Assembly: GCA_048213135.1 (NCBI GenBank)
Contig: PS015038.1
Span: forward strand, 131,136 to 151,135
DNA length: 20,000 bases
Direction: 5' to 3'
Source of the DNA: Reclinomonas americana ATCC 50394
Lineage: Eukaryota
A program made the position numbers and the translations under genes. The notes beneath the pieces are model-generated. The model saw only the letters and a program-made list of their open reading frames with translations, made no database searches and had not been told where the DNA came from. Of the stretch, positions 1 to 20,000 are shown one piece after another (positions within the stretch are counted from its first letter, which is position 1; every line of letters begins with the position of its first letter).

Positions 1-418
1 CGGCGAACTCGGCGCGCAGCTGAACAGCAAGGATCGCGAGCTGCAGCAAGTGGTGCGGCAGCTGGCGGACGCGAAGCGAGCCACCACCCGTCTGGAGGAG
101 GAGCGCGAGTCAGCGCGCGACCGTGAGCGAGTGGCACGCGACCGCATTCTCAAGCTCGAGGAGGAGCTGCGTCTGCGGGAGCGCCACTTGACCTCGTACG
201 AGGGCGAGTTGCAGGGCCAGGCCGTGGCCGCCGCCAGTGCCGCCGGCGAGCGTCGTGGTGCAGCCGAGACCCGTGCGACCCTGGAGCAGGAGCTGGCCAA
301 CAAGGAGCGCGCTCTCGGTGTGCAATCTGCCGAGGTGGAGAGGTTACGCAAGCAACTCAAGGATGCTACCACACGCCTGGCCGGTGTGGAGGAGGAGGCT
401 CGTGACGCCACAAAGCAG
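1..418 (+). CDS. Internal exon of a long coiled-coil protein (partial)
   Basis: Open frame from position 2 (GELGAQLNSKDRELQQVVRQLADAKR...DATKQ), E/R/K/L-rich heptad pattern. Ends CAG|GTGTGT (donor at 419); the intron runs into the N gap. Confidence 0.8.
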
Positions 419-473
419 GTGTGTGTCTCTCCATTTTTTTCGTGTATCATTGGCGACTGAATCTTATTCTGGC

Positions 474-493: not shown

Positions 494-3400
494 CCCACTG
501 TCTTTTGCGCGTCGAGCTGCGCAGAGTTGTTGTAGTGCTCCAACTGCGCCAGTTCGTGCTCCAGCTGTCGGATCTTGTCGGATCCCTGCCGTTCGCGCTC
601 GCGCACCTCCTTCAACTCGTCGTACGCATTGGTGAGCTCGCCTTGCAACCGGTACACACTCTTGCGAGCCGTGCTCAGCTCTTGCGACATGCGTTCCATT
701 CTGTATGGGCGCGGTCAGTACCAGCCGCAACAGGACAAGAGCGAGCGAGGAAAGAAAAGGGGGGGGGGGGCACGAAACTGCGAATCAAAGGTCGAGGACG
801 GCGCAGCAAACACCACGGCCTCTCGTGGCGGCTCCGGACGCAGGTCGTCGGCAGCACGTTGCATGCGACGCAGCTCGGCATTCAGCGTGGACACCTGTGG
901 CATGCGCGTGAGCACACCTGTCTGTTTTTTTTGGAAAGGAGAAACACACACACCTTGTCGACCGCAGAGGCCTCACGCTCCTGCAACTGGGCGCAGTCCT
1001 TCTTCAGCTGCGACACCTCGCGATCGAGCTTGAACACCTGCGTGTGTTTGCGTGGCGGCACAGCATAGCGTTGGTTGTCGAGTCACTTGCACAACAACAC
1101 AACACAGAGCGACTGACGCACCTCCTCCTTCAGGTGGCGAATCTCCACATCCTTGGCGCGCAGCTCATTGGCGTGCACCTCGTCGGACGAGGCATCCGAG
1201 CGCATGCGCGCAATCTGCGAATCACGCTCGCGCAAGTTCTTCTCCAGGCGGGCTGCGCAGTCGAGATGACAGTCGTGAGGACCATTGAAACAAACGAACA
1301 CATCAGAGCTCTGTGAACGTGCTTGCTCAACGCACCAAGTTCCTGCTGCTGTCGCGACATGTCATTTTCCATGCGCTTCAGCTTGTCCACCAGCCGCTCG
1401 TTCTCGTCCTGCAAATGCGTGCTCGACTCCTCCATCACGGACAGTCGCTGCCGCAGCTCATTGTCGCCAGTGACGCGCTCCGTGCCGCTCGATGGTCGCA
1501 CGCGGAGCGAGAGCAGCGAGGCCGGGGCTGCCGCGGTCACAGCAGATGAGCCCGAAGCGGTGCTGCGGGTGGCCGACGACGGTCGGGTCGGCACGTTCTC
1601 CTTGCTCAGTTGCCTCGCAATCTCCTCACGCTCACGGCTCACCGCCTACACGCCGCGCCAATAGGTGAGTCAGCAGGCAGAATGGAGCGGGCTGAACAAT
1701 GTCATGCACGCACCTCCTTGCGCTCCAGTGTGGCCTTCTCGCGCGCCTCCATGGCAGTCTCCATGTTGGCACGGAAAGCGTCAATCGCTCGGCGTCGCTC
1801 CGTGTCGTTGTCGCTCATCAGAGGCGCCAACGCGGCCGGGAGAGCCTCACGGACCTCGTTGCGCTTGCCGCCGCTGCGGTCCTCCTACACGAACACGCGT
1901 GTGAGAGACTTGCGCGCGCTTGTGCGATAAAGGTAGAAATTTTCCTTACCGTGCACTTGATCAGCGTCTCCACGGCCATCTTTCGCACCTCCACGTCCTC
2001 GTCCTCGGCAAACTCCGCAATCGCCTTGAGCGACTGCTCGCGCGTCCTCTCCACCATCATGTTTCCGTCGACACACATGTGGTACACGCCCTTGATGGCG
2101 TGGCGCTTGGTCTTGACGTCGCGTGAGACCAGCGACTTGAGAATGGCACTGCCGGCACCGAGAGCCATGACAGCGGCGCGGTTCGCCTCCTCCATCACCA
2201 TAAACGAGAGTGCGCCCATGGCGTACCTGGCGATCGACGCAGCGAATGAGCAACAAGCAAGCAAGCAAACAGCGACAAGAGGAAAAGTGCAGCTCACCGA
2301 CGAGCCTCCGGCTCACGGCCCTTGAAGCACTCCAACACAATCTGCACACCGTCAACTGACGGCACGGCCGCATTGCTGCACCAGACAACAGGGTGAGTAT
2401 GTGTGGCGAAGGGCGAAGGCCTCGCCCTTCTTTCTCAAACGCAGACTCAACTTGGCCGGATCCTGGCACATGTGCATGGTTGTGGCCAGAGCGTAACAAC
2501 GAGCCTCCAAATCCGAGTCCTTGGTCAGTCGCAGCAACACCGGCAGCGCACCGATGCGTCCAAGTGTGGCACGCGTGCGCTCCCCCAGGGACGCATTGCA
2601 CAGACACCGCAGACCGAACCGCCGACTCTCCACATCTTGCGTGTTGCTCACACAAAACAAAATCTCCTCGAGACCACCTGCGACACGCGCGCGCCGTGAT
2701 GAACAACCAGCGAGGAGGAGTGGGAAACAGGAAGGAGAAAAAATGATGATTGCCGAACCTTCCTGGATCAACTGCGACTCGTTGTCTTCATCGCTGTCAG
2801 CACAAACACACAGAGGTGTCAGAGAGCACTTGGTGAAGAAAATTGCACATGTTGTCACCCCAACGCACCTGGCCAGGTTGATCAAACTGCACAACACGCG
2901 AGCCATTTGAGTTGATGAGCACACACAGGAAGAGGAGGAGGAGGAGGAGGAAGAGGAAGGGGAAGCAACGCACCTCGCAAGCGCATAGCGCTGCGTTTCT
3001 GGATCGTCCACCTTCAAGCATTCGATGACATTGCGAATGCATCCAAGCGGGCGGAACTGCATCTTATTCTGTGGAAGCGGGTGTCAGCCACCGTCAGGAA
3101 GCACACAATAAAAGGGAGCGCGCGGCACGCAACTTCGACGTTGATGGACAGGTTGCACACCTGCACATCGAAAAAGTGTGAGAAACACAAACGGGAGAGA
3201 AACTGTGAAACTGCGACACGCACTGTTCGCAGAGCATCACGGCGAGTGCGAATGTCTTCAGCGAGGAGACACTGCACAATGAGCGGGAGACCGCCCTGCA
3301 GGCGGATTTCCACCTTGTTGATATCGTGGATGCTCAGGTTACACAGCGAGCTGCGACACCGACAAATCAGACACAAGAGAGTACGAGGAAAGAGGCAAAG

Positions 3401-4345
3401 CATGTGCGCACCGCAACGCGACACGCGTAATTTCGATATCCTGCGTGCCGCTGGAGAGGCAGTCGAGAATCGCTCCCACGCCGCCCAATCGCAAAATCTC
3501 CTTGCAGCTCGGCTCCTCAAAACTCATATTACACAGCAGACGCAGGCACAGCTTCTGCACATCGTACGAATCCACAGAGAGCCACTCCACAAGAATATCC
3601 AAGCCACCCTGCTGTCGAATCTCCTCGCGGTATTGTGCTGGATGACGATCGCCATCAGCGTCGCAAAATAGAAACCCACATACACACACACACGCAAACC
3701 GCGAACTGACCATGCTGACTGATCTTCCACAAGATCCACAGTCCATCGCGCTGCGATGCTGCGTCGCCTTCCGTCAACATCTCCAGGAACTTGTCGACGC
3801 AGTTGTTGTGCTCAATGTTGACATGAAGCGATTCTGCCACAAGAGAGAGAGAGTGAGTCAGGGCGCCAATGTCACTCTTGTGTGTGTGCGACTCACCATC
3901 GATTGTGATGCGACCGACTTCGGCCTGCGCCGCAGGCCGTGCGCGCTCCTGTTATCAGAAACACACATGCCAAGTGAGCGCGCGGAGAAGCGGGGAAACA
4001 AACACAGAGTCCGATCTTCCGCATCATGTGAAATCGATAAACGTGTCGCGTGCAACACACGCACTGGCGAACATGCTCCCTCTCTCTGTTACTCTCTCGC
4101 GTGTGCATGTGCATTCTTTCTGCGCGTGTATGTATGCACAACACTCACTCACACACAAAGAGCGATTGCAAACAGCGGAAACAAAGACGCACGCTCTCTC
4201 TCACGCACGCACGCACGTATGCAGTAACGCGCCACACTCTCTCACCACGTACACGCACTCTCACTCTTTCTCCTCGCTCTTCCCGTCTCTCTCAGTCGAA
4301 AGTGAGCGTGAGATGGCGCACACACAAACTCACCGGTCGCGACAT
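494..4345 (-). CDS. Armadillo-repeat protein with C-terminal coiled coil, multi-exon, 3'-truncated by gap
   Basis: Frame-consistent GT-AG exons: 4345-4334 (MSRP, tentative start), 3948-3897, 3833-3711, 3637-3412, 3350-3224, 3160-3134, 3068-2974, 2886-2869, 2793-2759, 2677-2452, 2375-2298, 2226-1950, 1884-1714, 1645-1336, 1252-1122, 1037-954, 894-779, 700-494. About 8 ARM-like units (EIRQQGGLDILVEWL...LRLLCNMS; EIRLQGGLPLIVQCL...ALRTVCNLS), then coiled coil. Confidence 0.88.
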
Positions 4346-4702
4346 TTAACGCCCCCTGAGTCTGTCACACGCACACACACGCACACACAAACACAAAGTG
4401 CAGCACGCTCCCTCGCACACACAAACACAAACAAACACAAACAAGCGCGCGTGGTTGGTGGTTCGTTGGCGAGCACTGTCCAGCAACACATTGGCACTGT
4501 CCATCTTAACGCGCCGGATTTTTGTAGCGCGCGCGCCTTTCTTCCCCCGTCTCTCTCTCTCTCTCTGCGTGCGTGTGTGTGCACAACTCTCTCTCCCCCT
4601 CCTCTCTCTCTTGTCTTCGTCTCTCTCCCTCTCTCTGTGGTCAGCAAGTTCGCGACTCAAATTCCGCACGTTGCGCTGCGCGTGAGGCCTTCTGGGGACC
4701 CC
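4346..4702. promoter_or_regulatory. Short divergent intergenic region, putative bidirectional promoter
   Basis: Lies between the inferred ATGs at 4345(-) and 4703(+). CA-rich left part, CT-rich right part. Positional inference only. Confidence 0.45.
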
Positions 4703-7653
4703 ATGCGAGCGCTGCTCTTGCTGCTGCTGTTGCTGTTATCAGTGACAGTGGTGGCCAGCAGCAGCAGCAGCACTCATCGCCTTCTCCACCAGCACCACCA
4801 CACTGCGCACGTGTTCGATTCAGATGCATGGATGACAATGATGAGGAACACCACTGCACACGATGATGATGGCGCGCGGATAGGCAACTATGCTCTGTCG
4901 CGCTTGCCGGTGTGCTTTGTGGAACTGGAGAGCGTCGACAGTGGCGGCAGAGTGATTACAACGCGCGACGATAATATCAGTGTGCGTGTCCGCGTAAGCG
5001 GCGGCATCAATAACAGTGTCGACGATGGCGACAATGCTGGAGGTGGTGGCATTGCTGGTTTTGAGCTGTTGTCGTATGCGTTGCGTCGTCACGCTTTATT
5101 GTCTTCTGCCATGTGTGTGTGTCTTTTCAGTTTGCATTGATCGTTGTTTGTGATATTGTGTGTGGGCAGTGATGAGACGAAGAGTGTTGTACGTCGTCAG
5201 CTAGTTCGCATGCGAGTGCATGTGGAGACGCGGGAGGACGATGAGTGGACGGCGTGGTCGCTTGTTCGGCAGTCGTCGGTGCGTTATACAAGTGTGCATG
5301 TCCTGCCCTCTGTGTGTGTGTTGCACTCATTCCGCGCGCTCCGTGCAGAACTGCGGTCGTGCATCGTTTCTGATTGGCGGTGGCGGCTTCCCGTGGCGGC
5401 AACATGCCAACATGAGTGATGTCATTGAGTCGCACACGCCGCACGTGCAGGTGCTGCTGCGTGGACAGAGTGCGCCGACACGCACTGTGAAGAGCGAGGT
5501 GGTGCTCACGCGCGCCGACGAGCTCTCCGCCTTGCGTGTCACATACGACGGCGTGTCGGTGCGCTCGGCTCGCATTGGGGAGGACGGCGAGCTGCGGTTG
5601 CTGCTGGACGATGGCGAGCTGGTGGAGGAGGCGCCGGTGTTTTCGCAGGCGGCGCATGCGCTGGGCTCGGCCGACTTGCGTGGTGCTTTTGAGCTGCTCA
5701 GCGTGGCCGATGGCGAGGTGATCGTCGGATTCCGCCTCACTGGCGGCCACCCCGATCCAACCATGCCGCTGCACATTGATCCACCGTATCACTTTTGGGG
5801 TGCGTGACGACGTGTCAAGGTCGGTGTGTGACAATCAATGTTCACTTTTGCTGGCTTGTCTCCACACAGGCTCGTTCTTTGGTAGCATTGACAAGGACGA
5901 CACGGCTACGAGCGTGGCCGTCTCGCCGTCGGGACTGATTGGTATCGCTGGCTACACCTTGTCGCACACTCGCATGAACTCGTTCACTGTGCCAATGTCT
6001 TCCTGTTGCGTACTGCCAGCTGTTGCCTTTGTCATTGTTTGCGTACGTTGCCTCTATCTCACGCTCCGTCACGGCACGCAAGATTCCGGAATTGTCGACA
6101 CGGTGGCCTTCGCAGCCATTGTCGATCCGCAGACCTACTCGTTGGTCAACATTGTTTACTATGGTGGATCAGGTACGTCGTCGTGATCGTGCCGAGCGAG
6201 ATGTGTGCCACTGTTGCTCACCATTACACGTGCTCACAGGAAACGACGCCGCCAACAGGTATTCACCGCCTTCACCGATGATGCCAACACAGTTTCTGTC
6301 GTTTGTCTCATTCTCGTCTCATACTCGCACAGCATTGCATTTTCCTCGGCGGAAGACGTTGTGATTTGCGGTGCGTCTCCAGCGGTCCTTCTTCTCTTCT
6401 GCACACATTATCCCTCATCTCCTTTTCTCTACTTTCTCCTTGCAATCAAAAAAAACAAGGCACGACGACGTCACCGATCATTCCCACAAGCGTCGATGCG
6501 TGGCGACCGACCTCGGTCACCTCCAACTCGGGTATTGGGTTTGTGGCGCGACTGACGCAGCTGGGTGTTCTGGTTGGCGGCACCTATGTGACCAATGTCG
6601 GCGCAACCACATGCGAGTCGTTAGCACTCGACAGCCAGAACAATGTGTTCATCACCGGCCGCTTCAAGTCTCCAGATGCTGACCCCACCGTTGTCGACTG
6701 TGGCATGGGGTGCACCAGTGCGGTCATCTACGTTATGGTGTGTTGACACCATCGACGCTGTTTCCTTTTGCGGATCACACGCTCACCGCTTCACCTGCCA
6801 GCGATTTGACCCCACTGCTCGCCTCCGCCAAACCTCCGCAGTCATGTTTCACACGAACTCGGGCGAACTGAACGGCGACTCGCAGGGTGGTACGTGAGCG
6901 GCGTGTGTCAGTGGATCTCTGCTGCATACATCTCACGGCATGCTGTTGTGTCGTCGTCGTCGCACACAGACCTGATTGCTGTGGACCCTGCGGATGACCA
7001 AGCTGTGTTTGTTCTTGGCCGCTCGCGAGCCACCAATCTCCACACCGTATTTGTGCGCCTCTCTCTCTCTCTCTCNNNNNNNNNNNNNNNNNNNNNNNNN
7101 NNNNNNNNNNNNNNNNNNNNNNNNNNNNNNNNNNNNNNNNNNNNNNNNNNNNNNNNNNNNNNNNNNNNNNNNNNNNNNNNNNNNNNNNNNNNNNNNNNNN
7201 NNNNNNNNNNNNNNNNNNNNNNNNNNNNNNNNNNNNNNNNNNNNNNNNNNNNNNNNNNNNNNNNNNNNNNNNNNNNNNNNNNNNNNNNNNNNNNNNNNNN
7301 NNNNNNNNNNNNNNNNNNNNNNNNNNNNNNNNNNNNNNNNNNNNNNNNNNNNNNNNNNNNNNNNNNNNNNNNNNNNNNNNNNNNNNNNNNNNNNNNNNNN
7401 NNNNNNNNNNNNNNNNNNNNNNNNNNNNNNNNNNNNNNNNNNNNNNNNNNNNNNNNNNNNNNNNNNNNNNNNNNNNNNNNNNNNNNNNNNNNNNNNNNNN
7501 NNNNNNNNNNNNNNNNNNNNNNNNNNNNNNNNNNNNNNNNNNNNNNNNTCCGGTACCGTCGGACGGTAGTACGAACGACGTACGTGTTGTTTCGTTTCGT
7601 TCGGTCCGTCCGTCCGCGACGACCACCACTCCTACCACCTACTTACGTTGTGC

Positions 7654-7706
<53 letters not shown>

Positions 7707-10700
7707 TATTTTCATCGCTGCAAGTCTCACTCCGTGCTCTGCGCCTAGTCAACTTTTGGGTACCACAACGCCTTTCAAGTATCCAATCTTGTGGAGACCG
7801 CAGCCGTCGACCGCGCCGTTCTGCTGAGACTCGATGTCACCAACAACATCACGCTGGATGTGAGTGGCCTTTAATTCCCGGTGGAGTAATTAGTTTTGCG
7901 TGATTCTGAAGCGAGGTGTGCGACGCAGTACATTCAGTTCATTGCCGCGGAGGCAGCGTACATTCCCGGAGCAGTGTCTACCGTTCCTTGCAGCACAATC
8001 GGCACGACTCTGCTGATCAATGGCACTTCTGTGTGGACTGCGGGTACGCCCCTCCCCCCCCCCCCGTCCCGTGAGTACCGTCAGAGCTGTCTCACAACCG
8101 TGCTTACAGTGGCCGCCGATATCAACATCCTCGTGTCAGCGTGCTCGTCCCCAACGCAATGTGTCACCAACTCATTGCAGGTGGCCGGTGGTCGCGAGGA
8201 TAGGGGTGCATCCTATTCCCTTGGTGATCCTCAATTCTATCGCATCTACATTAGCGAGGTTTGAGTGTGTTCAGCCGTGTCTGCGCGTATGGTGCAACCT
8301 CATTTCGTCTTTTCATTCAGATGTACAAAGGGTCTGGTGCACCGCTGGTTTCTGGTTTCGCCACTCGAGTCAATCAGAGCACACTGACGGCGGGACGCAT
8401 GGTCATTGATCGCAGCAATACGTTGCGTGTTTTTCTTTCTGCGCTGGGTGCCGACTCGACTGTTCGCAACTCACGATGGCCACCACCATGCAGCATATGG
8501 GTGACCACGGGAGACGATACCTCCAGTCTTCACAGAGTCAATGTCACGAGTGCAGACGCGATTTCGGGTGATCCTCCGGATCCCAACGCTCCGTTCAACA
8601 ACATGCTGGATGATTCTCCGTACCAGGCCACGGGCACAGGTGTCGATGGACAAGCTGTGAAGTCTGGTAGCGGCATGTTGGTAACGGTGGACAGATTCGG
8701 CAATGTGGTGTTTGTGGGCACCTCCAAGTACGGCAAGAGTCAATCGGGCGACATCCCGCCTCTTTCCGCAACCACTGTGACCTCGATCGCTACACCGACT
8801 CAGTTTTCCGAAGGCATCAATTACGACATTTACGTTGCGCTGCGTGTGGAACCATCCTGCTTCTTTATGTCTGGCAGCCATGTTCACCCGCAAGTCGTAT
8901 TGTTTGCAGGTTGGAAAAGTGTATCAGGCAGAATCTGTGCCTGATGTCGCATTCACGGCCGTGCACACCGACGCAACGCAACAGACGCTGCAGTCTATCG
9001 TGCTCCAGGTGTGTGTGCTACTGTCATTGCTGCTTGCCAAGACTGTCGTCTCGTCACCTACTCTGTTCGCGCGGCGCCACACAGTGGACGTTGCCAGCGA
9101 CACACATTGCGTGGGGTCGCTGGACTGCCGATGTGCAAACAGCAGTGAGTGGCAGCAACATGTGGGCCCCGGCCATGACCACGACCGCACCAAATGTGGA
9201 TTCCGCCGGCCTTGACTTGCCGGCACTGCCTGTCACTTTGGACTTTCGCGTTCGAGCCGTCACTGTGCTGACACAGTTCGCTGGTCCGTGGAGCACCGTG
9301 TTCACGCAAACTTTTGCTGATGGTCTGTCTGTGTTCCATTCCGTGTTTGCCGCACTGCGCCTCGTTGCTGACCACCAGCTTGTACAGCCGCCGTGTGGGA
9401 TCCAAACAAGTCGCTTATCGACTGGATAATCAGCGACCCCGCTGCGGCCGTTAACATACCGAGTGGCACTGTGATTCCGCCGATTGTTGGTCTGAACGTG
9501 GGCTTGACTGCTGGCGCCATCATCAACCGACTGCCGCCGGGCCCTCGCACTCGCTCACTGACACTGCGAGCCAACAGTGGTGGCGTGACATTCGATTGCC
9601 AGAACACCTCCATCATTCAACTCACGGCCACGGACCAGTTGTGGCTCCGTCTGACATTCGTCGGCATTACATTCCTGCGTTGCACGCCTCCGTTTGTCAA
9701 CGGCTACCAGACCACGGACTACTCGATTTTTCTGCAGTCAGACGGCGCCAACGGCGACGCCAGCAAAACTCACCAACTCACGCTTCGTGACTGTATTGTC
9801 CAGTCGTCGGATTACTTTGCGTTCCTGGAGGAATCCGTCGGCGACTTTACCGTCACCGTGCGAGACTCGGATTTTCCGTTCACACTCTTTGCTCGCTCCG
9901 GTTCGTGGCTGCGCTTCTTGCTCTCTTTTCGTTCCACGTGTGTGACTTGTTCTGCTGACTGCGCGCTCGCGCATGGCAGCCCCTGGACACACCAGCAAAA
10001 GCATCACCACCTTTACGAATTCCACGCTCATCGGCTGCGACTCGTGCGTCCGCATCAATGGGGCAATGACTTCGTTCACCATGTCGTACAGTACGTGCAC
10101 TGGTGCCTTCCGTGGGTGAGTCAAACACGTTGTTAGTTTCGACGCATATCCACGTGCCGCTGAAGCGCGCTGTGCAACTACAGACCGAATAACAGCAACG
10201 AGGCGTTAGCGCCATGCATCTACGCGAAGGGATGTTTGTCTACAAGGATCCTGTATTCCACCTTTGCCAACAACACCATCGACTCATCGCCTAACGAAGC
10301 GCTGACCGCGGCCGCTGTGGCACTCATTGGGACGGGTACCTCGTACATCGAGAACTGTCAGTTTATCAACAATTTGGCAACCTACACTGTCGCTGCTCGC
10401 CCTTCTGGCGACCAGGACGCAGCAGGAGCGCTTCTCATCAATGGTTTGTCTGGAGGGGGAAGGGTGTTTTCTTGTTGAAACACCGGACGCTGACCTGAAG
10501 AGCACAGACGTGAATCACATTCTGACCGTGACGGCCAGTACGTTTAGGAACAACAAATCAGTTGGCGGCACCGGTGCTCTCGACTGTGCCTGTGCGTGTG
10601 CTCGCGAGCATTGATGTAAAGTATGCTTCTGGTTTGCTGATCCGCCTGCTCTTCCGCAGCTGGTAGCTGCTTGGTTACCGACAGCGCGTTCTCTGGCAAC

Positions 10701-13700
10701 TCTGGGCGTATCGGTGGTGCCCTGCGATTCCGTGGTACAAGTTTCGTGGGAGTTGTCTCTTCAGCACGTCGGTTCTCGTCTGTTCACCATCTACCGGTGT
10801 GCACGTGTTTTCACAGCCAACACGGTTACCATCATCGGCAACACGTTCACAAGCAATGTGGCGACGGAGCTGGTTGGTCGACCGCTTCGCTTGGGCAGTA
10901 TTTGTCGTCCTGCTAACAATGGAATTGAACTGCAGGGAGGTGCAGTGGGCGTGTACGGTGGTTTCATGACCATGTGGAATTCCGAGTTTGTGAACAATGT
11001 CGCGAATCTGGGTGCCGGGTGTGTTCGCCTTTTATTGGTTGCTTTTTGCCACTTGCCTCTGCCACTAACTGCATGGTGGTGGTGACGCAGTGGTTTGGTG
11101 TTCTTCGCCTCCGGGTCGATCGTGAACTGCACCTTTGTCGGCAACAGTACGCCACTGCGAGGCGGCGCCATTGTGGCCAACGGAGCGCCGTCGCTCATTC
11201 TCACGTTACGTGCCACCGCACTGTCGGGCGCATTGTCGCACGCTTCGTCTCACACCGTTGTTATTTTGTCTCGCAGGGCTTCCACAATCACGGGCAATAG
11301 AGCGGGTCAGGGGGGCGGAATCGATTCTTCCTTTTCTCTCCTCCGCCTCGTGAGAATGACTGCATCGGGGAACACGGTTTGTTGCAGTGTCTGCTCTCTC
11401 CCTATTTTGCTCTCAAGTACCGATGGTGATGAATGTGTTTAATATGGCGCAGGCTAGCGATCATGGCGGTTTCCTGTTTTCGTACTACTCCACCTTGATC
11501 ATGTCGCTCTCCACCATTCGCACTAGCGGCTCAACCGCTGGTTCCGGTGGCGGTGTGTATGGCATCCAGTCGACCACCGCCATCGACAGTACCTCCTTCA
11601 CTTCCAATTCGGCGGCCAAGACTGGCGGAGCGCTCTACCTCGATCGGTGTCCTCTGGTGATGACCAACTGTACGGTGACGGACAACATTGCCGGTTCTGG
11701 TGGCGGCGTGTCGTTGATCGGCTCCAGGTCACGCGCTGCATTGCACGCACTTACACACGTATCTACTCGCTCACAACTGCTCGTGCATGCAACAGACCAA
11801 GCTCCATGTCAAATTGTGTGGTTTCGCGCAACTCGGCAACGTCGAATGGCGGCGGAATTTTAGTCGACGACAGTGCTCAGCTCTTGATTACTGGGCAAAG
11901 CACGCGAATCTCGCAAAACAGCGCTGCCACTGGGGGCGGCATTGCGTGCACTCTGGTGTGCTTGATTGTCACGTCACGATCGGGGATTGCACTCTGGCGG
12001 TAGAACTCATCGCGCTGTGTCCGCAACACAGTGCAACGAGTTGACGCTCACTGGCAACTCGATCTCGGAGCCAGTGCTGATCACCTCTAATGTTCTGATC
12101 AGTGACCCGAGTGCCTCCGCACCTCCAGTTCTCCGAGGTACGTGATCGAGTGCTTCTGTCAGAGGAGTGATTGTCTGATGCATGATGTTGATGATGCTGC
12201 GCGCGCAGGAGCTGGTGTGTTCGCGCAGCCTGTGCTCACAGCCCGGTTCAGTCTCGTCAACTTTGACACGAATCAGTGGTGTGTGGGATTGATTCTCTCC
12301 TCTGCGTTTTTTTGCGCTGTTGCTTATCGTGCCGCAGTGAGGACTGCAATGGTGGCGCGATTTATGCTTCCGATCCCGGTGACATGTACGTCAGCAGCTG
12401 GTGAGTACAATGATGAGATAGGATAGGAGAGGATGAGTACGACGGTGATGTGTTGTTGTGGCTCACCTTCTCGATTGCAGTGATTTCGTCAACAATAATG
12501 CCACCTTTGGAGGTCTGTACCACCAAACCCCCAGCGCGATTCATGTTTCTCCACGCTGTGTTCTGACTTGTTCTTGTCTGTGTGCGCACAGGTGCCATCT
12601 ACTACTCGTCGTCCAAGTTGCCGGCACCGGCGACAAACGACACTGCAAGTGTCGATTTTGGCGATGCTATGAACCCGCTAACTTCAGCTGCCAGTGTGCG
12701 CACCGTGGGTGTACTGGCCACAACCAACGGATGCATCACGTCGTCCTCATTTCGCGGCAATTCGGTGCGTAATGACTGTTCATAACGTTGACATTCAGTA
12801 CTCTTTTGTCGGCGCTGACTCGTCATGCACTTGCTTTCACGTGCATCCTGCAGGCGTTGCGTCGTGTCATGCAGTGCTATTGTCTGTCTCATGTTGCTGA
12901 TGGGGTGTTTTGTTTGTCTAGTGCGGCTGGCGGTGGTGCCATTTACTACGACCGCAGTTCACCGTGCGCCACGTCGCTGACCTTGACGGCCAACACGGCA
13001 GCGTATGGTGGCTCGCTGGCGTCCGCAGGCCGCGTACTGCAGTACGAGGCTGTGAACACAACAAGCGGGGACGCTGCGACTAACCCTCGTGGCTCATCGT
13101 CGTCAGCACCTCTGACGGCACCCAGCGGCAACTTTGTGCGACCATTCAATGTGTACTTGGTGGACACGCTTGGCCAGCTGGTGCGCAGCTCGAGTGGAGT
13201 AAGTGTGTCCATCGATGCAGCGACCTCCAATGTCACCGTCAGTGGTGCCCGTTCCATGGTGTTTGACAGCGGCGTGGCGTATTTCGACAGCCTTGTGGTT
13301 CGTCAATAACAGAAGTGCTTTTCTTCGTGTGTCTCTTTTCTCTCACTGTGGCTTCAGATTGTCGGTATGCCAAATACGGTGCAGACACTTCGTGCCACGA
13401 GCGATACCACCAGTCTGGTCATCTCGGTTCAGATGGACGCTTGTGTCGCCGGACAGTATCTCGATACCACGGCGCAGCGTTGTCGANNNNNNNNNNNNNN
13501 NNNNNNNNNNNNNNNNNNNNNNNNNNNNNNNNNNNNNNNNNNNNNNNNNNNNNNNNNNNNNNNNNNNNNNNNNNNNNNNNNNNNNNNNNNNNNNNNNNNN
13601 NNNNNNNNNNNNNNNNNNNNNNNNNNNNNNNNNNNNNNNNNNNNNNNNNNNNNNNNNNNNNNNNNNNNNNNNNNNNNNNNNNNNNNNNNNNNNNNNNNNN

Positions 13701-16700
13701 NNNNNNNNNNNNNNNNNNNNNNNNNNNNNNNNNNNNNNNNNNNNNNNNNNNNNNNNNNNNNNNNNNNNNNNNNNNNNNNNNNNNNNNNNNNNNNNNNNNN
13801 NNNNNNNNNNNNNNNNNNNNNNNNNNNNNNNNNNNNNNNNNNNNNNNNNNNNNNNNNNNNNNNNNNNNNNNNNNNNNNNNNNNNNNNNNNNNNNNNNNNN
13901 NNNNNNNNNNNCGTGTGCTTGGCACTCACAAGACGTGCAACTAGTGTGCCGTCTGTCCCGATGGTGGTGTTTGTGGCGACGGCCTGCTACTGGGGCAAGA
14001 TGAAGTTGCGTCACTTCCACACATGCACTGCGTAAGATGCCGCGACTCATTTCTTTGCAGGGATTCTGGCGACCGCGATCCGACGCAATTATATTTTACC
14101 CAGTTGCGTTGCCGCCCTGTATTCGTTCGCATTGCTCTTTTGCACTGACCGCTCTATTTCAGTGTCCGAACAGCGACTGGTGCCCTTCATACTCCACGAA
14201 TCGAGTGTGTCGTGGCGGACACACTGGTCGCGTGGTAAGCGTGTGCTGCGTACTTGTGCCCTGCGTGCGACAGACACTAACTTCTGCACTTTTGCGCCTG
14301 TTCCGTACCAGTGTGCCGTCTGCGAGGGTGCGTACACGTCCATGTCTATCTTTCGTTCTGACCTCCTGCTTCCTGACATTTTATGTTCCTCCCGAGATAG
14401 ATGGCTGGTTCTTGAATGGTAGCTCAGGATGCACCAGTTTCGTAGACGCGTTGGCAATAGCTGTCTATATCGTCGCTCACTGCGTGTGGCGGCGGCGGTG
14501 GTGATGATGATGATACAGAATGCGCATCCTCCGCCCGGACAGCTCTCACGCTGGTTATTTTCGCCTCGGTTATCGCTGCTATGGTCTTCTTCTTCTGTGC
14601 GTCAACAATTCGTCGTCTGCACTGCACACCGATTTGTGTATTCACCATGCGTTTCTGTGCAGATTTGATTCGCACTGCCGGGTAATGGAGTACACGAGCT
14701 GTTTACATCACAAGGTTGTGCCTCTCTCACTCACACTCACTCACACACGCAGTGCCATGATCAAGCTGCGCATTTTCGTCTCCTTCCTGCAGGTCCGTTA
14801 AAGTCAAACCATTGTATTTGTGCACGCGTTTGTTTGTGCTGACCACGCTGCTCTGTCCGCGCGTGCAGATGGTGTACGAGTTGCCCGAGTATCAAGTACC
14901 GTGGCCGCTATCGTGCGTCTGTCGCTCTCTTTGCACATAAGTGGCCTCGGTGATGTGGCAGTTGACAGTGTGCATACAAACAGTTGGCTCAATCTCAGCA
15001 CTCAATTCGCTTTCTTGGAGCTCGACATTCTCCAGGCGACGGTGCGCATCGCGTAGAATAGTTGTTGTCTCTCAAAAGCGCAAAGGATCGTGCAACTGAC
15101 TGCGTCTGCTGCAGTCGTTCCGCTGCATTGCCCCCAGCATTGGGTGCGGCGGGGAATGTTCGATTGCTTGTTTCATTCTATGCTGCAGCGCTCACACGGT
15201 GGTGGTGTTGCAGAGACCTGTACTTTGTGAAGATTGTTCTCATCCCGCTGCTGCCGGTTATTGCCATTGGCATCCTCTTCATCGTTTTCGTTGCGTCACA
15301 GCTGCAGTTGCAATTGTTCGCCCGCTTGTCTGTGTCCTTGTCTGAGTGCCCGGTCCGTGCCTGCAGCTGCTATCCAGGCCCGCTGTCCGCGCGAAGCTAA
15401 AGCTGTGCTGCTGTCGCTATTTCCTGTGTCGTCGCAAATGGAAGCCCGTTGACGAGCTAGGCGACGACGACGACACGGCAAACGATATCGATGCTGTGGA
15501 CGCGGATGGCGATAACGACTCGGTGTCGTCACAGAACGACCAGTTCGTGGCATCGCCGGAGGCACTGCGGGCAGGCTCCACGCAGTACGCGTCCACCGAG
15601 CTTTCTACGTTTTCACCACCGTCACCTGACGATCAGGCGGATCGAACCCGGGTGCGCCCCATTGTGCCTTGTGCTGCTTCACAAATGCAATCTGTTCCTC
15701 ACAACTTGTGTGCAGACTACCTCTGCCGGAGCGACTATGGTGTGTAACTCGCACGTGTGTTGTTGTTGTTGTTGCACCGCTCACTGGTACCTTCTTTGTT
15801 GCAGAATCGCAATGATGTAGTGTCGCCGTCAATGGTTTGTGCGCGCGCTTCGGACGCGCCAGGTTTGCTTGCTGCACCACCAGCGCGTGCCACTGACGCG
15901 CGTATGCGCGTGGCCGAGAGTTGCGTGTTTTCTTCCACACTACTGGAACAGAGTGACACACGACCTAACGCCTTTCATATCTTGGTGAGCAGAGGTGGCT
16001 CGCGGCCTCAATGCGACGAAAGACGCGTCGGTGGCGTCCTCTTCCGACGGAGAGGAGCGAGATGACTTTGATTTCATGTCTGTGGGTGAGTGCACCGTCC
16101 TGGTTGGAGCGCGCGGCTTCAGCATCGTTCGCAGTGACTGAACAATATGCATGCGTGCGTGCGGCAGACTCCATGATGGTGCTGAGTCCATTCGAGCTGT
16201 TTGTGCAGCGGAGGTACGTGGTTGCTCAGATTCCTCTTCACGTACAACCGATATATTCATGCTGTGCACACAGCTTCCTCGTCGTTTTTATCGCCTACCC
16301 GGTATGTGGAACAGAGTGCGTTCCTTGCGTTGTACCTTGCATGCTAACTCGCGCGCTATGCAGGGTGTCGGTGGTGCGTACTAGGACAGTGAGAGCTCAA
16401 TAAGGCGCAACAATGCTCTCGCTCACACCTGTTTGTTTCGCAGCCACCCTCCTGTCGTACTTCAACTGTCAGGTGGGCTGGCTCTCTCGTGTGCTGCATG
16501 CTTGTGTTCTGATCCACTCAATCTGTCGAGTGCAGTTGCTCAACGACGGATCGTGGAACAAGAAAGGCATGTTGCTGCTAGGGGCCTCATTGTGTGTGTC
16601 TGTGACTGCGGCTGCTAATGCATGTGTGGCTTGACAGATTTTTCTGTGGCATGCTACGACACCAAATGGTTCAGCTTCTTGCCGTGGGTGGTGCGTGGCA

Positions 16701-19488
16701 TTGATGAGTGTGCGTATTTGCGCGCGGGGCGACTGCTGACGTACATCTGAGCAGTTGGTGTGGTGCTTCCTGATCCCGGTCGGCTTTCCCCTGGCGTGAG
16801 TCCATACGTGCTCGCCACACTCGTGAAGACAACCTCAAACTGCATATGTGTGTGCTTGTGCATTCACAGCATTGGACTTACGGTCGGCTTCAACCGACGC
16901 CGACTGCGTCGATTCAAATTTGAGCATCGATGGGGGTTCCTGTACGAAGGTGTGAATCACGAACGTGCTCGTTTGCTGTATCTGTCAAGCTCATTCTATA
17001 TGTTGCTTGTACACAGCCTATCGGTAAGTATGTGTGTCGCCGCTGCAGCAAACATGTCTGCCTTCTGATTGCGTTTCACGTGGGTGATCTGCTGGCATCT
17101 GGCAGGAAGGGAGTTTCGTTGTCTCTGTCCGTTTTCATTGCTGCTGACCAATCTCATTCGCTGACTCGGTCTGTGTTTGTGACTGCCGTCTGCAGGCCGA
17201 ATACTGGGAGGTTTGTGCACACTTCACTTTCTATTCACTCAGTGTGCGTGAACGTGTGTACTCATTTTGTGTGTCGATCGGCAGGTCACTGAGCAGGTTC
17301 GACACCAAGTCGATCGCATTCTCTAACGCTCGCTGCGCACTTCATCGCTAACAGTGCGTGTCACTTGGCTTTGCTTCTGCACAGATTCGCAAGGTGAGTG
17401 TTGTCGACTGTGGTGTACATCATTGCGCGGTCAGGTCGCTCGCGCTCACGATGCGTTTCTTGTCGCAGCTCACACTGGCCAGTCTGCTGATTGTGCTGGG
17501 TGAGTTGGTGTTGCATTGTGCGACTGTGTCAGTGACCACGCTCACCACGCAGCCGTCAGGTTTCCAACCGGCACTCCAAATCCTGCTTGGTGTCGTTGTG
17601 TCGGCCGCTGCAATCATCGGTCACCTCATTGTGCGACCATTCAAAGAGCGAAGTGACCAGTGGCTGCAGGTGAGAGGCAGAAGGGCAAACAGGGAAAGAG
17701 AGAGAAAGTGGGAAGGAGGGCGAGGAGGAGGAGGAGGAGGAGGAGGAGAAGAGGCGTAGAAGAGAGAGCATACATAGCCATGTCTCTAATGACATGAAAA
17801 TTTCAAAGTGTGTTCGTGAGAAAGGGGAGGGGAAAAGTGGGAAGGAGGGGAGGAGGAGGAGGAGAGGGAGAGATAGTGCATGTGCTTTGCAGCGGTTTCT
17901 CATTCGTGACTACGCCTGTACAGACGGCGTCACTCATTGACATTTTCTGTGAGTACTGTAACCATCCGCTTCGTGTGTGTTGCTGCCATTCACTCACTGT
18001 CGACCTTGTTTTTTTGGAACAGCGCTGCTTGTTCTCGGCATGGCACTGAGGTAATTGCGATGCCATGTTGAAGAACAGCGCGACAACGTGAAGGAATACT
18101 CACTTGTGTGTTTCCTCTGTGTGTAACAGGATGCAAACACTGCCGTCTGAGCGCAACTGTTGCGTATTGCAGCGTTGCACCTTCTATTGATGGGGTTTCT
18201 CACAACTGTGAATCAGTTTTCAACATCATTCTCGTGGTGCTCACGTGCTTCAGTGCGTATCCATCCTGCTGCATGACGGTGCAATCGCCGCACACTGCTC
18301 ACTTAAATTGTGTTCTACTGCAGTCATCATTCTCGGCGGTACGATTCTGTTCCTTGAGGTACGTGTGACTGCGATCGTCAGAGAGAATTGCACGTGGCAC
18401 CGATATCCGTGGGTGAAACTCACTGGGTCTTCTGCGTCTTTCCATCGCCGCCAGATCACTGTCGAGGTGTGTAGCTGCAGGCAGCATTCGTTGGCATAGT
18501 CTTCTTGCGTCGCTGACACCACTGTGTGGCTATTTCGCAGTCCCGTCGTGTCGTGGCGCACTACCCTCGTCTCCGTTGCTTGTTGGGCTGGGTGTTCTGC
18601 TTCTGGTGCGCACAACGGTGGTGTTTGCATAGGAGCATGACGATCTTACTGACCCTGTGCGTTGTAGCATCAAGCGCTGCCGACCGGCGTACATGGAGCA
18701 TCCGAAGGCGCATGTACATCATGATCATGCGCACGACGACGACGACGACTACGAGGATGAAGAGGACGAGCGCACAGTCATGCTGGAACTACAGCAGTAT
18801 CCGATGTTGGCGCCCATGGACGACGATGCAGTTCTGTCGTGTTATTTCCCCAACGCGTGCACATATGCATGTTTGCGTTAATGAGTGCATGTACTCACCG
18901 CTGCGCTCGCCGTTGCAGCGTGCACGCATGACCAACTTGGTCCGTTCGTGTTTCGCGGCGGCGACTCAATCTGTCGCCGGCGCTGCTGCGGCTGCGCAAG
19001 ATCCGGCGTCGCCCGCTGCTTCTGAAGCCAAGCCGTTCCATGTGCTCCTCCGGGAGCATGCTGCAGCTGCCAGCGCTGCAAGTCAGGCACTACCGGCTCA
19101 AGTGACACCACCACCATCATCGCCTCGCACGCCACCGCTGCATCCAGCCGACGAGACGCGGCCCGGCGGCGACGTGTTTGCCGTGCTGTCGCTCCCCGCA
19201 TCGCCGCGTCTCCTGTTACCGCAACCACCACCGCTGCCGTTGGTGGTGAGTGGCAGCGCCGATGGTCGCCGGGAGCGGCGCCACACCTCGGCCGATCGCA
19301 CGGAGGTGCTGCTGCCCGGTACGCCAGTCCACTCGTCGCTGGACGATGACAACTGCAGCAACATCTTTCCTGTACAAGACTTCTCCGACGACGAACGCCG
19401 CAGTGGTGGTGGCAGCAGCAGCCACAGTGGCTCCACTAGCCCACGTCGCCAGCTGTTGCCTCGCTCACGGTCGCGGTCGCCAAGATAA
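4703..19488 (+). CDS. Giant multi-domain cell-surface multi-pass membrane protein (SBBP propeller, FN3, Pmp-like beta-helix, Cys-rich, about 9 TM), about 2,750 aa plus gap content
   Basis: 75 exons with consistent phases: 4703-5073,5170-5278,5349-5799,5870-6004,6083-6172,6240-6258,6333-6370,6460-6737,6802-6889,6970-7046,7749-7859,7929-8043,8110-8258,8321-8833,8910-9008,9085-9322,9388-9900,9980-10115,10184-10443,10508-10591,10660-10734,10817-10872,10936-11018,11091-11204,11277-11376,11453-11727,11796-11955,12032-12137,12209-12278,12338-12400,12481-12512,12592-12764,12854-12855,12922-13297,13358-13486(gap),13945-14004,14061-14102,14163-14234,14312-14327,14401-14436,14519-14596,14663-14681,14753-14792,14869-14912,14984-15041,15115-15143,15214-15289,15367-15651,15716-15739,15805-15919,15993-16085,16168-16213,16274-16301,16364-16373,16444-16472,16536-16566,16638-16690,16755-16795,16870-16949,17017-17023,17106-17112,17196-17210,17285-17296,17385-17393,17469-17499,17560-17669,17924-17948,18023-18050,18130-18158,18217-18252,18324-18358,18455-18466,18541-18605,18668-18830,18919-19488(TAA). 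Starts with signal peptide MRALLLLLLLLLSVTVVA. A few junctions have alternatives, and continuity across the second gap is inferred. Confidence 0.85.
7059..7075. repeat. (CT)n microsatellite at left gap edge
   Basis: ctctct run ending at N. Confidence 0.95.
7076..7548. other. Assembly gap (473 N), probably spurious
   Basis: Run of n; the flanking exons join in frame. Confidence 0.95.
7657..7696. repeat. (CT)20 microsatellite
   Basis: Perfect CT run followed by a short GT run, intronic. Confidence 0.95.
8931..9322 (+). other. Fibronectin type III-like domain
   Basis: SIVLQWTLP...LDLPALPVTLDFRVRAVTVLTQFAGPWS matches the FN3 W..P / F.VRA / G.WS pattern. Confidence 0.7.
9388..13030 (+). other. 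Right-handed beta-helix (pectin-lyase-like, Chlamydia Pmp-type FxxN/GGAI repeats)
   Basis: More than 12 repeats, e.g. FSGNSGRIGGAL, FTSNVATELGGAV, FVGNSTPLRGGAI, FTSNSAAKTGGALY, FVNNNATFGGAIY, FRGNSAAAGGGAIY. Confidence 0.85.
13430..14530 (+). other. Cys-rich juxtamembrane stalk (growth-factor-receptor/furin-like), interrupted by gap
   Basis: CVAGQYLDTTAQRC...CAVCPDGGVCG...GFWR...FYPCPNSDWC...CRGGHTGRVCAVCEDGWFLNGSSGCTKC. Confidence 0.8.
13487..13911. other. Assembly gap (425 N) within Cys-rich coding region
   Basis: Run of n starting mid-exon. Confidence 1.
14531..18466 (+). other. Multi-pass TM domain (about 9 helices) with TRP/PKD2/FLC-like motif pattern
   Basis: Spliced motifs IKLRIFVSFLQ, VPWP, IAYPGVGATLLSYFNC, DFSVACY, GFLYEAYRKGAEYWEVTEQIRKLTL, LQILLG...HLIVRPFK, plus hydrophobic segments. 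Family assignment is by recognition, not search. Confidence 0.7.
17670..17875 (+). repeat. Purine-rich/(GGA)n low-complexity tracts within a 254-nt intron
   Basis: gaggaggag... at about 17722-17748 and 17845-17870; intron 17670-17923. Confidence 0.85.
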
Positions 19489-19887: not shown

Positions 19888-19904
19888 CTACATGAAGGAC
19901 GTGC

Positions 19905-19927
19905 GTATGTGTATGTATGTATGTGTA

Positions 19928-19999
<72 letters not shown>
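19905..19999. repeat. (GTAT)/(GT)n microsatellite
   Basis: gtatgt units, then a pure GT run from 19933. Confidence 0.97.

Positions 20000-20000
<1 letters not shown>

Follow-up and report, generated by a model that had tools for sequence, protein, structure and literature searches.

The stretch of DNA analyzed here (the window) comprises 20,000 nucleotides (nt) from Reclinomonas americana ATCC 50394, located on contig PS015038.1 (positions 131,136 to 151,135 of the forward strand, GenBank assembly GCA_048213135.1). It is a very intron-dense eukaryotic locus with a G+C content of about 55 to 60% and three assembly gaps. Our subject is a class of 5' splice sites (donors) in the genes of this window which read GTTNNG and lack the G that most other donors of the locus carry at intron position +5. 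Coordinates refer to the window, donors are named by their first intron nucleotide, a minus sign after the number denotes the minus strand, and a slash within a motif marks the cleavage site. The window contains the following features:

1-470, plus strand: coiled-coil gene, 3' end only
3951 down to 494, minus strand: armadillo gene with eight armadillo repeats followed by a coiled coil (from Pfam Arm and the translation)
4703-19488, plus strand: giant gene with its stop codon at 19488
from about 19567: fourth gene, start only
474-493, 7076-7548 and 13487-13911: runs of N (assembly gaps), two of them within the giant gene

The giant gene codes, in this order, for a DUF7948-like domain, propeller-like repeats, Chlamydia-PMP/beta-helix repeats, a Cys-rich module and a multi-pass membrane part. 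Introns were parsed by dynamic programming. The base parser scored donors from +3 to +6 only (and was therefore blind to the exon) and permitted an inserted T at +3 at a cost. It returned 97 introns, 16 of them with a GTTNNG donor of the class, and none of these 16 has a G at the last exon position (-1). With its low penalty this parser over-splits (e.g. at 5189-5272 and 7912-7915), which was fixed by hand during curation. Parsers without a donor model, or with the ordinary matrix only, were set aside: they fused or skipped small exons and read through in-frame introns. The curated parse is our final set. It contains 90 complete introns (74 from the giant gene, 16 from the minus-strand gene), in agreement with the total of about 90 in the original prediction, and 95 donors, i.e. 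those of the complete introns together with five donors of introns truncated by gaps or by the window end. The curated minus-strand gene is open throughout, and each of the three parts of the giant gene delimited by the gaps forms one open frame. Retention of 17 of the 90 complete introns would keep the reading frame, as these are in frame and contain no stop codon (five of the 18 introns with GTTNNG donors and 12 of the 72 others).

The main donor consensus of the locus is G/GTGCGT (e.g. 5279, 5800, 6371 and 12765). At +4 the most frequent base is C (35 of 70 counted +5G donors), to which the standard 5' end of the U1 small nuclear RNA (snRNA) does not pair. The 95 donors divide into 72 with +5G, 18 that read GTTNNG without +5G, and five of neither type (6259 GTATTCA, 7047 GTATTTG, 11728 GTCACGC, 14682 GTAATGG and 18051 GTAATTG; -1G in 4/5). 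All 18 donors of the class conform to GTT[GTAC][CAT]G[TC]. They make up similar shares of the donors of the two large genes, namely 15 of 75 (giant gene) and 3 of 16 (minus-strand gene). The original prediction had listed 15 such sites, and the curated set recovers all of them together with three new candidates (5080, 8422 and 10741). Re-reading of the strings confirmed that each of the 15 is GTTNNG without +5G and with A, C or T at -1, and that the nine other GTT donors listed there all carry both -1G and +5G. The class is as follows, with "required" denoting introns whose retention would change the frame or introduce an in-frame stop and "optional" those that are in frame and stop-free:

772..778, minus strand: GTTTCGT, A at -1; intron 778..701 (78 nt), required (in-frame stop)
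2445..2451, minus strand: GTTGAGT, A at -1; intron 2451..2376 (76 nt), required, no +5G alternative
3127..3133, minus strand: GTTGCGT, A at -1; intron 3133..3069 (65 nt), required
5080..5086, plus strand: GTTGCGT, C at -1; intron 5080-5169 (90 nt), required (in-frame stop); added candidate from the exon-blind parser
6005..6011, plus strand: GTTGCGT, T at -1; intron 6005-6082 (78 nt), optional
8422..8428, plus strand: GTTGCGT, C at -1; intron 8422-8493 (72 nt), optional; added candidate from the parser
8834..8840, plus strand: GTTGCGC, C at -1; intron 8834-8909 (76 nt), required
10741..10747, plus strand: GTTTCGT, A at -1; intron 10741-10816 (76 nt), required; added candidate from the parser
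11205..11211, plus strand: GTTACGT, C at -1; intron 11205-11276 (72 nt), optional
12856..12862, plus strand: GTTGCGT, C at -1; intron 12856-12921 (66 nt), optional
14005..14011, plus strand: GTTGCGT, A at -1; intron 14005-14060 (56 nt), required (frame change)
14103..14109, plus strand: GTTGCGT, A at -1; intron 14103-14162 (60 nt), optional
14437..14443, plus strand: GTTTCGT, A at -1; intron 14437-14518 (82 nt), required
15290..15296, plus strand: GTTGCGT, C at -1; intron 15290-15366 (77 nt), required for its acceptor
15920..15926, plus strand: GTTGCGT, A at -1; intron 15920-15992 (73 nt), required
17113..17119, plus strand: GTTTCGT, A at -1; intron 17113-17195 (83 nt), preceded by a 7-nt exon
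18159..18165, plus strand: GTTGCGT, T at -1; intron 18159-18216 (58 nt), required
18831..18837, plus strand: GTTCTGT, A at -1; intron 18831-18918 (88 nt), required

The class differs from the ordinary donors on both sides of the cleavage site. A G at -1 is present in 61 of the 72 +5G donors and in 0 of the 18 class donors (Fisher test, 9e-12). Instead, the -1 position of the class holds A in ten, C in six and T in two cases, the A being enriched over its background of 22% (p 0.002). The log-likelihood of the exon side of the class is -70.6 for the ordinary exon profile displaced by one base, -105.2 for the unmoved profile and -75.5 for the background. In the ordinary donors, G occupies -2 in 11/72. 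On the intron side, the downstream core GCGT was found in 10/18 class donors vs 18/72 ordinary ones (p 0.02). Taken as a string, the class reads (C or A)A/GTTGCGT, which equals an ordinary (C or A)AG/GTGCGT with the first intron G changed to T and cleavage one base earlier.

GTTGCGT occurs ten times in sense and twice in antisense orientation in the window. The corresponding counts are 0 and 0 for GTAGCGT, 2 and 2 for GTCGCGT, and 3 and 3 for GTGGCGT; GTTTCGT is found 6 and 0 times, on a sense strand that is T-rich. On both strands together, the 12 occurrences of GTTGCGT compare with 5.75 +/- 2.40 expected, and at least 12 were reached in 2 of 200 dinucleotide-preserving shuffles. As a control for the freedom given to the parser, decoy parses were run in which A, C, G or T was insertable at +3. 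They picked 2, 4, 3 and 16 class donors, with score gains of 1.3, 12.5, 6.9 and 82.1, respectively. The decoy donors retained G at -1 in 2/2 (A), 2/4 (C) and 2/3 (G) cases, compared to 0/16 in the T class. Sense-strand GTTN[ACT]G sites outside introns which are class donors or have T at +7 number 20: all 18 class donors, of which 17 have T at +7, plus only two exon-internal sites with T at that position. Looser exon-internal matches number 26, with -1G in nine of them. The class thus carries the ordinary consensus displaced by one T; the displacement is specific to T and tied to a non-G base at -1, and the pattern is statistically strong.

Class introns are similar to the other introns in GC content (0.53 in both sets) and in median length (76 vs 71 nt). 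They are 56 to 90 nt long and end in typical branch-like motifs and acceptors. Three other identities for the class were considered and rejected. An introner or repeat family was not apparent from an all-against-all blastn comparison of the 90 introns, which gave two reciprocal matches of 13 to 15 nt, none between class members. Introns that start with TT and are slid by one base would need a G 3' of the intron, which only 4 of the 18 have. U12-type introns have donors of the form (A/G)TATCCTT and the branch site TCCTTAAC; like the class described here, they form a second, minor donor class with its own consensus within the same genes. The extended U12-type donor, however, was found at 0/18 class sites.

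By frame change or in-frame stop, 13 of the 18 class introns are required. The claim of the original prediction that the reading frame requires cleavage before the GT holds for 11 of its 15 sites and fails for 6005, 11205, 12856 and 14103, whose introns are in frame and stop-free. Several sites have other in-phase GTs that could serve the same acceptor. No such alternative with +5G exists for ten of the 18 introns; alternatives with +5G are present at 5080, 8422, 8834, 10741, 11205, 14005, 15920 and 778-.

At four sites (3133-, 2451-, 11205 and 12856) the junction is fixed by homology or repeat spacing. The armadillo units of the minus-strand gene have lengths of 41, 43, 41, 41, 42, 41, 41 and 41 residues, with a glycine anchor in register. 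The junction at 2451- lies at a unit boundary and keeps 41 residues, whereas the alternative donor 2469 would leave 35. Its split codon AA/C codes for Asn at position 2 of the unit, as in units 3, 4, 5, 7 and 8, and a hidden Markov model (HMM) built from the other armadillo units scores 416.9 bits with 2451- and 411.2 bits with 2469 (a difference of 5.7 bits). The junction at 3133- likewise falls on a unit boundary and keeps the modal 41 residues; the sole in-phase alternative, 3139 (GTCGAAG), would give 39. Here the armadillo HMM does not discriminate (447.4 vs 446.5), and spacing is what supports 3133-.

For the giant gene, 140-residue windows of alternative isoforms were scored against 55 PMP-repeat proteins. 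These had been matched in a HMMER scan, and none of them is a protein of this locus. Donor 11205 ranked top of five isoforms with 1046.6 summed bits, compared to 715.8 for the next donor and 435.9 for the retained intron. Donor 12856 was top of three (862.2 summed bits vs 609.7 with the intron retained and 551.5 with donor 12874), and removal of its intron yields an intact PMP repeat motif. Two replacements for 12856 were tried. One continuous intron, 12765-12921, would be 2 nt out of phase; the GC donor 12767 is possible but off consensus. Word-index protein searches with single exons gave no match to the locus proteins or to close relatives, metagenome scans found no relative, and a protein atlas returned generic armadillo clusters only. 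In the window itself, Rfam gave no match at the gathering score, and no snRNA genes were found there.

At the remaining sites the evidence is local. Donor 14103 is the only in-phase GT for its acceptor, and its intron has a typical 3' end (ACTGAC and TTTCAG). A single alternative exists for 14437 (14419, GTAGCTC, without +5G), for 18159 (18174, which would leave a 43-nt intron) and for 18831 (18777, GTCATGC). The intron at 18831 ends in TACTCAC and TTGCAG, and its donor was picked even by the parser without a donor model. At 14005, use of either alternative (13951 or 13969) would cost the Cys-rich module some of its cysteines; with the chosen donor, the reading frame stays open as far as the stop codon at 19488. 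For 8834, in-phase alternatives lie at 8714, 8777 and 8846. A T-rich tract is present at the acceptor 8909, and the rival pair 8844/8931 is frame-compatible. The intron at 6005 has a branch-like TCTCAC 21 nt upstream of its acceptor. Its removal leaves a 23-residue spacing, equal to that of the next repeat of the propeller-like region, for which the number of homologues available for scoring was 0. In the intron at 8422, ACTCAC is found 19 nt upstream of a CAG acceptor.

Donor 5080 is a weak candidate, with six in-phase alternatives of which two (5074 and 5113) carry +5G. For 778-, in-phase alternatives are found at 892, 811 (+5G) and 799, and the minus-strand open reading frame is open with the chosen donor. 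Two alternatives of 15920 (15863 and 15902) have +5G; the region codes for a low-complexity linker, and the protein gives no discrimination. The assignment of 15290 is uncertain: its four in-phase alternatives all lack +5G, but the parser favored 15353/15444, and the curated path retains a basic, Cys-rich stretch after a membrane helix. Donor 17113 is uncertain too: one intron of 246 nt (16950-17195), with two micro-exons left out, would likewise be in frame.

Some further features of the gene models were noted. Five micro-exons of 7, 7, 15, 12 and 9 nt lie at 17017-17393, where the giant gene codes for its membrane part; all of them have consensus-like flanks. Intron 17670-17923 is a length outlier (254 nt; the others have 44 to 169 nt, mostly 56 to 96). 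It is rich in GGA/GAG repeats on the sense strand, holds an open, Glu-rich frame and was at times called as exons by the parsers. A (CT)n microsatellite (7640-7700) sits in intron 7580-7748, and a long (GT)n run is located near the window end (19900-20000), 3' of donor 19901. The region between the divergent minus- and plus-strand genes (3960-4700) consists mostly of low-complexity sequence rich in CA, CT and GT. One or more initial exons of the minus-strand gene fall into this region, upstream of the acceptor 3952 and outside the gene model. An ATG at 3897-3899 on the minus strand abuts donor 3896 (atg/GTGAGT); it is off the frame of the next exon and was not taken as the start codon in the model.

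Most of the 18 GTTNNG sites are likely to be real donors, and at a good share of them frame, spacing and homology support genuine splicing. As to how they are read, we somewhat favor the view that they are U2-type GT-AG donors on which ordinary U1 would pair one base downstream of its usual register, rather than being bulged or replaced by a variant snRNA. In a usual donor (G/GTGCGT), the G's on either side of the cleavage site pair with two adjacent C's of U1. In a class donor, the first intron G would substitute for the last exon G in this pairing. The U at +2 would then form a lone mismatch with the second U1 C, +3U would pair with the U1 A that normally faces +2, and GCGT at +4 to +7 would pair as +3 to +6 do ordinarily. 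Such a register would explain the absence of -1G, for which +1G stands in, and would make a variant snRNA unnecessary. It would also explain the specificity for T, since only a U at +3 could pair with the U1 A. The apparently strict link to a non-G base at -1 would follow from the exon profile being displaced by one. The stricter GCGT core fits a compensation for the mismatch at +2, as expected.

Cleavage would stay before the GU because U6, U5 and Prp8, rather than U1, would set the cleavage site in later steps. It is established that U1 binding alone does not fix the cleavage site (Roca and Krainer 2009, Seraphin et al. 1988, via PMC4856993; PMC11162779). In the U6 step, either a shifted U6 register or, probably, one looped-out base would be needed; evidence for a one-base shifted U6 register is given in a paper on STAT3 (PMC11162779). 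Pair counts with the standard U1 5' end (PMC4856993, PMC9311317) are in line with the proposed register. Ordinary donors form 7.49 pairs in the normal register, whereas the class forms 4.06 in the normal register, 6.39 when shifted by one and 6.61 with +3U bulged (means, n=18). The class thus shows the marks of a shifted register: GU at the cleavage site (in 13/18 by frame or stop), better pairing after the shift and displaced exon preferences. What stands of the original prediction is a distinct, T-displaced donor class with a non-G base at -1. The variant U1 or U6 snRNAs or altered protein contacts that it further suggested are not a necessary assumption, as shifted ordinary U1 would suffice.

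A number of points weigh against this interpretation. Fifteen of the 18 sites come from one gene. The displaced profile predicts about 15% G at -1, so that 0/18 is only mildly low (about 0.05), and the "strict" non-G coupling may stem from the small sample. The shuffle excess of GTTGCGT is modest. Both parses were consensus-guided, and their agreement is partly circular; complete legal paths without the GTTNNG class were found by parsers with an ordinary donor model. Homology backs only two of the five introns that are in frame and stop-free (6005, 8422, 11205, 12856 and 14103). In its calibration, the homology test placed the curated donor on top in 7 of 10 ordinary introns with alternatives and non-zero score. 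Donors 5080, 15920 and 778- are contested by in-phase +5G alternatives, and 15290 and 17113 by other legal paths. Donor 10741 is uncertain, ranking third of seven by homology after 10735 and 10732. Donor 12856 implies a 2-nt exon (GC) at 12854-12855, between introns 12765-12853 and 12856-12921. Turning to the register, the U1 5' end used for the pair counts may not be that of this organism, the C at +4 of the main consensus is unpaired by standard U1, and by number of pairs the shifted register (6.39) cannot be told apart from one with +3U bulged (6.61). That the sites are used in vivo, the register in which U1 pairs with them and the events of the U6 step are all inferred by us from sequence.

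One rival reading is a bulged register. In this case the sites would be real donors with U1 in its normal register at the exon side and at +1/+2, and one U (+2 or +3) bulged out. It matches the shifted register in pairs with the standard U1 5' end, both being well above the normal register. Bulge +2/+3 and asymmetric-loop registers are known from human donors (Roca et al. 2012; Tan et al. 2016), the former predicted at 68 of 201,541 sites (PMC4856993). The class resembles them in having one extra nucleotide before the equivalent of +5G, and its UU at +2/+3 would leave either U free to bulge. But a bulge keeps the exon-side pairing, with -1 opposite a U1 C, and would favor -1G, the loss of which it does not predict; the class has -1G in 0/18 and the ordinary donors in 61/72. 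Moreover, the bulged base could be any, yet the decoy parses recovered 2, 4 and 3 sites with A, C and G vs 16 with T, a specificity expected of the shifted register and unexpected of a bulge. We consider a bulge unlikely. Lineage-specific machinery, i.e. a second U1 (or U6) variant or altered contacts of U1-C, LUC7 or Prp8, would fit the abundance of the class, 18 of 95 donors compared to 1.5 to 2.1% for all human non-canonical registers combined (PMC4856993), and the main consensus GTGCGT already deviates from standard U1 pairing at +4. The T-specificity and the -1 pattern would, however, already be accounted for by shifted ordinary U1, and in a U1 lengthened by one base the next C would still pair with -1, favoring a -1G that the class lacks. 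This explanation seems to us quite unlikely.

It is also conceivable that the class is largely a parsing artefact and that many of the 18 sites are unused, other donors, longer introns or intron retention taking their place. Five of the 18 introns are optional by frame, +5G alternatives exist at eight sites, ordinary-model parsers find complete legal paths, and the shuffle excess of GTTGCGT is modest. On the other hand, the decoy control gave 16 sites with T, where the score rose by 82, vs 2 to 4 with A, C or G. The -1 base was never used in site choice by the exon-blind parser, and yet the pattern at this position is extreme. Four junctions are fixed exactly by homology and repeat spacing, and introns of 56 to 90 nt end in typical branch-like motifs and acceptors. 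On this evidence an artefact appears improbable. A more far-reaching version of the preferred reading is that the shifted register is a regular second recognition mode, T-specific, with a stricter downstream core and with G barred at -1, which is under selection, serves roughly one intron in five genome-wide and maybe has a dedicated U1 variant or changes in U1-C or Prp8. We put this forward tentatively, as a possibility that we rather doubt.

Human sites with a shifted register number a few dozen. The class at this locus is best read as an abundant version of this known shifted U1 register, which is offset by one base and serves some donors in human (Roca and Krainer 2009, via PMC4856993, PMC11162779); a test oligonucleotide for it had the sequence ACA/GUCAAGUAU (Tan et al. 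2016, PMC4856993). Shared with the human sites are the GU at the cleavage site, a poor fit in the normal register and a good fit one base downstream. In both, +2 faces a U1 C, +6G and +7U act in place of +5 and +6, and A occurs at -1. The base at +3 in the class is U, as in the human examples cited by the original prediction. The differences concern abundance and core: shifted sites are rare exceptions in human, whereas the class makes up 18/95 donors at one locus, and its core is GCGT instead of AAGU. Furthermore, the class described here is known from sequence alone.

The main hexamer G/GTGCGT with its +4C and CTGAC-type branch motifs are also found in the Mamiellophyceae (Ostreococcus, Micromonas; PMC2483917, PMC3879977). 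There, however, the branch point is located 43 to 52 nt from the acceptor, compared to about 15 to 30 nt here, and the available portions of these two articles report no GTT-shifted class. A literature search for GTTGCGT, GUUGCGU or GTTTCGT together with "intron" retrieved nothing on splice donors among the matches listed; supplements lay outside this search, and an earlier description is possible.

Shifted and bulged U1 registers in human are rare curiosities, known mainly from work on disease genes and minigenes. If about a fifth of the introns are indeed read in a shifted register, the class would show how far U1 binding and cleavage-site choice can separate in nature, and it would supply natural examples by the hundreds to thousands on which the U6 step and the rules governing register choice could be tested. 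Gene finders that employ a single donor matrix would then misplace or miss about one intron in five, as the ordinary-matrix parser did here. Should the register even prove to be a regular second mode, the organism would offer a natural case of U1 register being uncoupled from cleavage-site choice on a large scale.

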